64,000 nt of DNA from Candidatus Curtissbacteria bacterium RIFCSPHIGHO2_01_FULL_41_11 (GTDB taxonomy: Bacteria; Patescibacteriota; Microgenomatia; Curtissbacterales; GWA2-41-24): NCBI GenBank assembly GCA_001776335.1, contig MFAZ01000043.1, positions 3,984 to 67,983 of the forward strand. Direction: 5' to 3'. Below the pieces are notes generated by a model that saw only the letters and a list, made by a program, of their open reading frames with translations, was not told where the DNA came from and ran no database searches. This document shows, piece by piece, positions 62,301 through 63,201 of the stretch; the first letter of the stretch is position 1, and every line of letters begins with the position of its first letter. A program made the position numbers and the translations under genes.

Positions 62301-63089
62301 AACTTTAATGAATTCGTCTGCATTGTAGTCGCCTAGTTTGAAATATTCTTCTTCTGATAGAAGATCCAGGGGCTTTATAGATTTAACAAGGTTCGTGATA
62401 TTTTTGTAGATTTCTTCCAGTCTTGAAAGTTCTTTTGCGTTTTCGTCACGCATCATAGCTGTTTTGTGACGCATCACAAGTTGTGCTTCTTCTATTTTTA
62501 GATCTGACTGTTCTTTTGGACCTGTTTTTTTGGCTTTTATTACGGTGATCTCTTTTTTGCTTTCCGCTTCCAACTCTTCGATTCTCTTTTTGAGAAGGTT
62601 TTGTTGTTCTTTGCTTTTTTGAGCCAATTCGTTTTCTAAACCTTTTAAGACTGCTTTTCTCTTCTCCTCGTCGACTTCGATTACAATGTAGGATGCGAAG
62701 TAAATAACCGCATCAAGGCTTCTTGGCGAAACGTCCAAGAGAAGACCAAGTTTGGAAGGGCTTCCTTTGAAGAACCAGTTGTGGACAACAGGTGCGGCCA
62801 GAGTGATGTGGCCCATTCTTTCTCTTCGGACCCTGGATTGGGTTACTTCAACACCACATTTATCACAAATTATTCCTCGGTATCTGATTCTTTTATATTT
62901 TCCACAGTAACATTCCCAATCCTTTGTAGGTCCAAAAATACGTTCGTCAAAAAGACCATCTTTTTCCGGCTTAAGGGTTCTGTAATTTATTGTTTCGGGC
63001 TTGGTAACTTCTCCAAAAGACCAGGTTTTAATGTCATCGCCTGAGGCTATTGTAAGTTTTAATGCTTCAAAATCTACTAATTCGTTAAT
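59400..63089 (-). CDS. rpoC: DNA-directed RNA polymerase beta-prime subunit. The 5' end is uncertain: there is no ATG, GTG or TTG upstream of the conserved N-terminus, and an AUU initiator is proposed.
   Basis: The track ORF begins at an internal Met (MGHITLAAP). Codon-by-codon translation upstream recovers a conserved beta-prime N-terminus, ...[92 protein letters not shown], open to an in-frame TGA at 63168-63170. [14 protein letters not shown] is at the expected position. Confidence 0.85.
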   Translation of the reverse strand: [1229 protein letters not shown]

Positions 63090-63201
63090 TTCTCCAAGGG
63101 GACACCAGGGTTTCCCCTTGGTATTCCTCTTCCTCCATAGGATAATTTTGAACTGGCGGAGCCAGATTCAAAATTAATTTTATTTTTATAATTTTCATTG
63201 T
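63090..63201 (-). promoter_or_regulatory. Conserved leader module copy F (family 2) between rpoB and rpoC, overlapping the region where rpoC must initiate
   Basis: Shares GGAAGAGGAAUACCAAGGGGAAACCYUGGUGUCCC with copy A upstream of infA. Upstream hairpin CTGGC-GGA-GCCAG. Confidence 0.55.

Follow-up and report, generated by a model that had tools for sequence, protein, structure and literature searches.

At which codon does translation of the β′ subunit of RNA polymerase begin if its gene, rpoC, offers no ATG, GTG or TTG where the protein ought to start? This question is raised by a 64,000-nt stretch of DNA from Candidatus Curtissbacteria bacterium RIFCSPHIGHO2_01_FULL_41_11 (contig MFAZ01000043.1 of assembly GCA_001776335.1), below referred to as the window, in which rpoC follows rpoB on the minus strand. 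On balance, we lean towards the view that β′ is initiated with initiator tRNA at an AUU triplet (63089-63087), that this allele arose recently through replacement of a 139-nt segment at the rpoB-rpoC junction and that the AUU is reached in part by reinitiation. Judged from the sequences compared below, this would be a natural AUU start like those of infC and pcnB, with an unusual origin and context.

The rpoC reading frame and its orthologues

The frame of rpoC, which lies on the minus strand, is bounded upstream by a TGA (63170-63168), and 27 codons on from it lies the ATT triplet 63089-63087, which continues with AAC GAA TTA GTA GAT TTT GAA. As the initial annotation had stated, there is not a single in-frame ATG, GTG or TTG between this TGA and the ATG at 62816; reading of the strand and the list of open reading frames (ORFs) agree on this point. 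The startless in-frame stretch amounts to 117 codons, the extreme value for a window with 57 long ORFs; the runner-up, 58 codons, belongs to an ordinary rplV. Of all these frames, rpoC alone has a long conserved N-terminus devoid of a start codon. The 91 residues encoded upstream of ATG 62816, which had been described as conserved β′ sequence, represent the true N-terminus of the protein since the match to PF04997 (RNA_pol_Rpb1_1) sets in at residue 7 of the ATT-started translation, corresponding to profile position 4. Because the cysteines of the zinc motif CxC...CxxC fall within these 91 residues, a start at Met92 cannot yield a normal β′. What is observed is, in short, a near-cognate triplet at the homologous N-terminus of an intact ORF whose frame harbours no canonical start. 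The triplet is preceded by a Shine-Dalgarno (SD)-like GGAG (63095-63092) followed by AA, leaving the 2-nt gap that had been noted initially. An alternative genetic code in which TGA is read as sense was considered and is of no help, as a TAA is present two codons further upstream and a recoded TGA would hence not rescue the rpoC start. Public gene calls for the ATT allele (P0122) begin at Met92 and give a truncated product of 1138 amino acids without the zinc-binding N-terminus. If rpoC starts at the ATT, this truncation is an annotation artefact, and such gene calls remove the zinc-binding N-terminus of rpoC from the databases. The gene upstream was recognised as rpoB by its translation; RNA_pol_Rpb2 Pfam domains are found on the corresponding gene of contig L082.

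Orthologous proteins place their first methionine exactly at the ATT. The window β′ belongs to the same 90%-identity cluster as OGD86424.1 (P0124), and over the 30 N-terminal residues compared the two are identical except for residue 1, which is Met in OGD86424.1 and Ile in the translated window. More than 88 β′ cluster representatives from Curtissbacteria (76-93% identical) have Met1 at the ATT position with an N-terminus reading MNEL[IVL]DFE or a close variant, which bears out the earlier assignment of the ATT to the ancestral Met1. The relatives listed in this range of identity are 1223-1231 residues long; the motif is kept by the exceptions in length, one gene call extended upstream and two shorter proteins with a normal start. 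Read in the DNA, the rpoC start codon is ATG in L081, L085, L087 and L096. At the rpoB-rpoC junction an ATGA overlap is present in L081, L085, L087 and P0126, and elsewhere the genes are separated by 7 nt (L097), 30 nt (P0123) or 36 nt (L096). The conserved start-codon control of the infC type that had been envisaged finds no support, as orthologues and even strains with identical flanks have ATG. The canonical start found in orthologues at the same position thus settles the matter with regard to conservation only, while the present strain still lacks such a start. From these comparisons, the non-AUG start of rpoC is best described as a strain-level variant and neither as a feature of the lineage nor as a conserved regulatory device. 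A scan of genome contigs with the N-terminal 130 amino acids returned only relatives of at most 86% identity, mostly Chloroflexota, and no close ones; owing to the strong conservation of this region, the scan is uninformative on close relatives.

Two alleles of the rpoB-rpoC junction

Sister contigs, retrieved via an exact match to the S12 protein, reveal that the junction exists in two forms. In the sister strains L085 and L087, which stem from two different ENA assemblies, 29 nt replace a 139-nt segment of the window that comprises the last eight rpoB codons and the stop codon, in diverged form, as well as a spacer of 112 nt. With the window-type contig L084 as reference, the identity of L085 amounts to 100% across the 2028 nt upstream of the junction and to 99.97% across 10.3 kb downstream, while L087 is 99.95% identical on each side. 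The sister allele reads ...AAAACCG TCTAGCCCTATGGAAATTGAGGACGCACC ATG AAC GAA..., its rpoB product ending in SSPMEIEDAP* and its TGA overlapping the rpoC ATG. The window allele reads ...AAAACCG AGCAGTCCAATGGAACTGGAGCAATAA ACA ATG AAA ATT ...(module)... CCCCTTGGAGAA ATT AAC GAA..., where the module is the leader element described below. Apart from the 139-nt segment, the sole nearby difference between the alleles is the T versus G of the start codon, the coding sequence of rpoC being otherwise the same. Homology between the alleles extends to the final eight codons of rpoB, which show many synonymous differences; this marks a recombination patch from a diverged relative and not a simple insertion. 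The rpoB tail of the window (AGTCCAATGGAACTG) is similar to the one found in L096, the next species, so that the module allele may be native and the ATGA allele the import; the direction could be either. Insertion of the module behind an original rpoC ATGAA was considered and rejected, since the left end ATGAAAAT(A/T)ATAAAA also occurs in the module upstream of rplP in L138. The AUG allele is present in at least as many assemblies as the ATT allele (L085, L087 and the contig that encodes OGD86424.1). When the C-terminal tail of rpoB served as protein query for further contigs carrying the ATT allele, the best match had 74% identity and there were no near-identical fragments.

The ATT junction is shared by contigs of different origin. 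The window and the MEGAHIT contig L084 are identical through the whole module and the ATT, yet they are separate assemblies, the window differing from L084 at six clustered single-nucleotide polymorphisms (SNPs) in rpsJ which it has in common with L086. The window allele was found in ERZ4903055 and the ATT junction in JGI sample 3300025323, whose contig L088 begins with TGGAGAAATTAACGAATTAG; altogether, TGGAGAAATTAACGAATTAG occurs in three assemblies from different pipelines. An assembly error is not indicated since window, MEGAHIT contig and JGI contig have the ATT junction in common. For the same reason, an uncorrected frameshift or sequencing error, which had initially been considered, is unlikely, the more so as a one-base change of frame would add an N-terminal extension seen in no orthologue. 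In L086/L083 (ANAN16-1, SAMN03842431, scaffold_4978) exactly 100 N (2071-2170) cover the segment in which the alleles differ, flanked by ...AAAACCG and AACGAATTAG..., which is consistent with co-occurrence of both alleles in that sample and a branching of the assembly graph at this point. Whatever its origin, a DNA molecule in which module, ATT and rpoC are joined exists, as far as assembled sequences can tell.

The rpsJ polymorphisms are an observation in their own right. At window positions 53781-53814 (11443-11476 of L084), six differences within 34 nt set the window and L086 apart from L084 and L085; they probably mark another small patch of recombination within this population.

Leader module, bridging frame and a proposed route to the AUU

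The 112-nt spacer between rpoB and rpoC is one of six co-oriented copies of a two-hairpin module detected in the window by a covariance model (Table 1). The rpoC-proximal copy F contains hairpin 1, a purine tract of the form GGAA(G/A)(A/G)GGAATA and hairpin 2 in this order and in the orientation of the gene. It was recovered independently as a repeat (families D3 and D7) and by pattern; its score of 108.7 bits was obtained with a model whose training alignment included copy F. Where the module precedes a coding sequence, the start codon follows hairpin 2 at a distance of 5-13 nt and is ATG save for one GTG, copy F set apart. F-type copies (CCAAGGGG...CCCYTTGG) carry an ATG or GTG 3-8 nt behind the GGAG that lies at the base of hairpin 2. 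Copy F departs from this usual spacing to a canonical start: its ATT lies 4 nt behind hairpin 2 and 2 nt behind the GGAG. Copy F is hence a normal member of the family whose start codon is abnormal and sits at the lower limit of the usual spacing. In none of the 97 module loci found in metagenomes is rpoC the downstream gene.

An ORF of 37 codons in the rpoB frame bridges the spacer. Its ATG (63198) is located 3 nt past the rpoB stop codon (UAA-ACA-AUG) with a GGAG 9 nt upstream, it spans both hairpins, and its TAA (63087-63085) overlaps the ATT (63089-63087) by one base, the rpoC frame being +1 relative to it. An out-of-frame ORF had been recognised here from the outset, albeit as one of 17 codons, which merely starts at an internal Met; nor is such a frame simply absent from module copy A as had been thought, since this copy carries a 56-codon bridging ORF in a different frame. 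The overlap of an upstream stop codon with a downstream start is the arrangement of reinitiation coupling, although the restart codon is AUU with a GGAG 2 nt off and not AUG, GUG or UUG with an SD-like sequence. Similar frames occur at other copies. At the rpsG module a 37-codon ORF has its ATG 2 nt past the rpsL stop codon and ends 4 nt before the rpsG ATG, and at the infA module the ATG of the 56-codon ORF overlaps the map stop codon (TAATG), with 2 nt separating the TAA of this ORF from the infA ATG. We counted an ORF as bridging if it starts between -4 and +15 nt from the upstream stop and if its stop codon sets in no earlier than 12 nt ahead of the downstream start's first base and no later than 6 nt past that base. 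With spacers of up to 170 nt, this applies to 7 of 22 non-redundant module spacers, while 500 dinucleotide-preserving shuffles yielded 0.44 on average and 3 at most, and the reverse-complement control none. The ORFs have 36-56 codons, further examples being found in L104, L119, L126, L138 and L177. That of L138, upstream of rplP, is a homologue of the copy F ORF and ends 1 nt before the GTG start; an exact match to the 37-residue peptide is on record for one contig only. The bridging peptides use three different frames relative to the conserved motif. Conservation of the motif as a peptide was considered and rejected, as its commonest loop variant (GTTAGG) places a stop codon in the respective frame. 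It is therefore the RNA and not a peptide that is conserved. The arrangement is suggestive of the bridging ORFs acting as relay ORFs for translational coupling.

Based on these features we propose that the AUU at 63089-63087, chosen because no other triplet yields the universal N-terminus, is decoded by initiator tRNA, which would give the same protein (MNELVDFE...) as in the sister strains. At this junction, relatives show an ATGA overlap or else a short spacer followed by ATG, and the recent 139-nt replacement would have brought in the diverged rpoB tail together with one copy of the module, which this lineage appears to place before highly expressed genes. Ribosomes would probably reach the AUU by two routes, either by entry via the GGAG located at the base of hairpin 2 or, provided that the relay ORF is translated, by termination at its UAA which overlaps the AUU and subsequent restart. 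A substantial share of reinitiation is proposed since the GGAG is too close to the AUU and since AUU performs poorly in ordinary initiation; the relay route would also substitute for the ATGA coupling lost with the former junction. The ATT allele was assembled repeatedly, including a 64-kb contig, and given contigs of such length and the essential nature of rpoC, the strain must translate this gene. It would presumably make enough β′. By way of compensation, the weak codon might be offset by a strong leader, bringing β and β′ back into balance.

Several observations weigh against this proposal. The 2-nt gap between GGAG and AUU is too short for a normal distance between SD sequence and start. 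AUU reaches 1-2% of the activity of AUG in E. coli reporters, and the confirmed natural AUU starts of that organism are infC and pcnB (bioRxiv 10.1101/063800). None of the more than 88 relatives carries a non-AUG start in rpoC. Less weight attaches to a scan of metagenome contigs for ATH-started rpoC (ATH-AAY-GAR-YTN...TGG...AARCCNGARAC, a pattern that matches L082, L084 and L088), which gave no match in a collection evidently lacking the L088 contig. As to the relay, the module copies are related and hence not independent, which weakens the statistics of the bridging ORFs. About two thirds of the module spacers lack such an ORF and the module also precedes tRNA genes, so that a ribosome relay is excluded as its main role. 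In bacteria, post-termination scanning and reinitiation are established (PMC5972666; PMC6728339). Our literature search returned no report of bacterial reinitiation tolerating AUU, and nothing relevant on an AUU start in rpoC or on non-canonical starts in Patescibacteria.

Among the alternatives, the one that survives best is that the allele is simply impaired: having lost both AUG and ATGA coupling, it would produce a few percent of the normal amount of β′ from the AUU without any special mechanism, and its carriers would be a mildly or strongly deleterious lineage with a transient existence alongside the AUG allele. The near identity of the alleles elsewhere (99.97%) fits this notion, as the change must be very young, perhaps too young for selection to have taken effect, and so do the weakness of AUU in E. 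coli, the solitary position of the non-AUG start among the relatives and the number of assemblies carrying the AUG allele. Occurrence of the ATT allele in three assemblies, one with a 64-kb contig, points however to a population of some abundance, and β′ is required in stoichiometric amounts with β. We consider impairment unlikely. Initiation at the AUU could also be part of a broader scheme in which the module is a portable expression leader of the Microgenomates. Wherever it lands between two coupled genes, a short relay ORF of unconstrained sequence would restore coupling by starting at the upstream stop, melting both hairpins and terminating on the downstream start, with reinitiating ribosomes accepting AUU. 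Permissive reinitiation of this kind would account for the survival of an essential gene that lacks a canonical start, but in this general form we regard the idea as rather doubtful.

Much less probable is a start at ATG 63198 combined with a programmed +1 frameshift near AAU-UAA-C, or with a missed one-base indel, either of which would furnish β′ with a 37-residue N-terminal extension. It is true that the 37-codon ORF is open from 3 nt past the rpoB stop up to the ATT, that rpoC lies in its +1 frame and that a 0-frame stop codon following a GGAG resembles the layout of prfB. Yet, there is no slippery codon, since by the rules of codon-anticodon pairing tRNA-Asn on AAU would be unable to re-pair with AUU. 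The extension has no Pfam match and is found in no orthologue, all of which start with MNEL. Over the module, not a single base differs between window and L084, and the homologous ORF of L138 stops 1 nt before the rplP GTG and is not fused to it. There is likewise very little to be said for the T of the ATT being an assembly or consensus artefact that conceals molecules with ATG behind the module. The locus is polymorphic, one scaffold breaks here with 100 N, and metagenome assemblers can mis-thread such bubbles; against this stand the three assemblies from different pipelines that contain TGGAGAAATTAACGAATTAG, the length of the 139-nt segment, which falls below the final k-mer of MEGAHIT as implied by the contig name 'k141', and the position of the T, which passes without a break into module-specific bases in one direction and into rpoC in the opposite one. 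Other in-frame starts are just as improbable, for the upstream near-cognate codons (ATC 63167, ATT 63146, ATC 63143) lie inside or beside hairpin 1, lack an SD-like sequence and would add 18-26 non-conserved residues, whereas the internal AUG 62816, though picked by gene callers, deletes the zinc-binding N-terminus, conserved from residue 7.

Initiation at the AUU invites comparison with known systems. With E. coli infC and pcnB, the window rpoC would share an AUU as the initiation codon of a gene serving gene expression, and IF3 is expected to discriminate against it, thereby lowering or conditioning the output. In infC, however, the AUU is conserved across species and subject to feedback by the gene's own product; here it is confined to one strain whose relatives have AUG, and conservation of a non-AUG start among orthologues, as in infC, is not seen. 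We know of no link between β′ and start-codon discrimination. The infC gene itself is not found in the 64-kb window. Stop/start coupling through ATGA or TGATG (Huber et al. 2019, PMC6728339) is classically represented by the sister allele, and in the window the short ORF starts 3 nt past the rpoB stop and its own stop overlaps the rpoC start. The difference consists in a non-conserved 37-codon relay ORF reaching across two hairpins and in AUU as the restart codon; near-cognate restart codons are tolerated in eukaryotic viral systems (PMC5972666). A superficial likeness exists to prfB, where a short 0-frame ORF also stops just after an SD-like sequence, here GGAG, with the conserved protein in the +1 frame. 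Unlike in prfB, there is no conserved slippery P-site codon allowing +1 re-pairing at AAU-UAA-C, and no extended orthologues are known from the comparison above.

Only infC and pcnB are confirmed in E. coli, and confirmed natural bacterial starts that are not AUG, GUG or UUG are very few. Against this background, an essential, stoichiometric subunit of RNA polymerase would start with AUU in one strain and with AUG in a nearly identical sister. The allele pair constitutes a natural experiment on the extent to which start-codon strength and rpoB-rpoC coupling can be traded against a strong leader.

The module family beyond rpoC

The module family is probably a more interesting object than the AUU start itself. 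Structured and widespread, it lies before translation genes and tRNAs of Curtissbacteria and of genomes related to them, and neither the element nor its bridging ORFs seem to have been described so far. Searches of the window, the module regions and 16 loci against Rfam, with gathering as well as E-value thresholds, returned only tRNAs and chance-level matches. The hairpin-2 pattern was found at 97 loci in JGI metagenomes (L098-L194). Hairpin 1, which the search pattern that gathered the module copies had left unconstrained, displays abundant compensatory changes in an alignment of 49 copies; one of its pairs is UA in 24, AU in 20 and GC in 4 of them. The features of the window are compiled in Table 1, genes next to modules having been identified by Pfam and gene calls.

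Table 1. Features of the rpoB-rpoC junction and module copies in the window
Feature	Position	Strand	Basis or remark
rpoB, 3' part (β subunit)	63202..64000	-	translation; stop TAA 63204-63202
Allele-specific 139-nt segment	63090..63228	-	last 8 rpoB codons and stop (diverged codons), 112-nt spacer
37-codon bridging ORF, rpoB frame	63085..63198	-	ATG 63198, TAA 63087-63085
In-frame TGA bounding the rpoC frame upstream	63168..63170	-	
Module copy F, upstream of rpoC	63090-63199	-	
Hairpin 1 of copy F, AT-rich stem, cap CUGGC-UCC-GCCAG	63143..63176	-	fold; covariation across 49 copies
Purine tract GGAGGAAGAGGAATA	63122..63136	-	GGAAAGGGAATA or GGAAGAGGAATA in all copies
Hairpin 2 of copy F (CCAAGGGGA...UCCCCUUGG)	63094..63121	-	fold and covariation
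GGAG, SD-like, foot of hairpin 2	63092..63095	-	GG inside stem
ATT, proposed rpoC initiation codon	63087..63089	-	position of orthologue Met1
rpoC (β′), 1229 codons and stop	59400..63089	-	
First canonical in-frame start, ATG (Met92)	62814..62816	-	ORF list
Module copy upstream of rpsL	59262-59372	-	
Module copy upstream of rpsG	58656-58768	-	
Bridging ORF at rpsG module	58655-58768	-	
Module copy upstream of rplD	52475-52587	-	
Module copy upstream of rpsN	46869-46993	-	
Module copy A, upstream of infA	41658-41780	-	
Bridging ORF at infA module	41654-41824	-	

Across the loci the module precedes genes for S7, S12, S8, S4, S3, S14, L2, L4, L6, L14, L16, L20 and L36 as well as tuf, hrcA and infA. 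It is also found 4-8 nt upstream of mature tRNA 5' ends (L103, L128, L172), and at some loci a terminator-like hairpin follows directly. Since it precedes tRNAs and terminator-like hairpins, the module cannot be solely a translation signal. Leader or processing signal, 5' stabiliser and ribosome entry site are candidate roles. A sigma-70 promoter was considered and rejected, the one promoter-like match within copy F (TAAACA-16-TAAAAT) being at chance level; inspection of the module copies by eye disclosed no conserved promoter-like hexamers, and in the supposed -10 hexamer, positions 3-4 show covariation with the 3' arm of hairpin 2.

As a structured element of about 110 nt that recurs in many intergenic regions before ribosomal-protein genes and is present or absent at the same site in close relatives, the module resembles ribosomal-protein leaders and REP/MITE-like intergenic repeats. 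It differs from them in that one element stands before many different genes, tRNAs included, in its fixed orientation and distance to the gene start and in having no Rfam match; neither terminal inverted repeats nor a target duplication were seen at the module. L096 (GCA_030688205.1), whose β′ falls into the same 90% cluster as that of the window, possesses no module between rpoC and rpsL, which are 19 nt apart (4690-4710), or between rpsL and rpsG, which have no spacer at all (5198-5199). At these two module-free sites of L096, the window harbours modules of 143 nt (59257-59399) and 120 nt (58651-58770). Judging from this pair of genomes, modules seem to be gained or lost quickly.

Two further observations concern the surroundings of the hairpins. 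In L098, L106, L114, L121, L123, L149, L150 and L160 the module is followed by a terminator-like hairpin (AAAAAAAGACCCC...GGGGTCTTT) with no intervening gene, and it may hence also exist as a free-standing small RNA. In a group of GC-richer contigs (L105, L108, L112, L113, L129, L131, L141, L145, L148, L156, L159, L162, L167, L187, L190 and L193) the motif of hairpin 2 recurs within conserved surroundings of another kind, ...TTTTAAGGGGAAAGAnTGTTTCCCCTTATCGGCGTA...GCGGAAGGAAAGGGAATATTAAGGG...CCCTTAAGGAGCGA..., with no obvious ORF behind it. The scanned members L105, L108, L131, L141, L145 and L167 gave no Rfam match, and the group may represent a larger non-coding RNA which shares hairpin 2 with the module.

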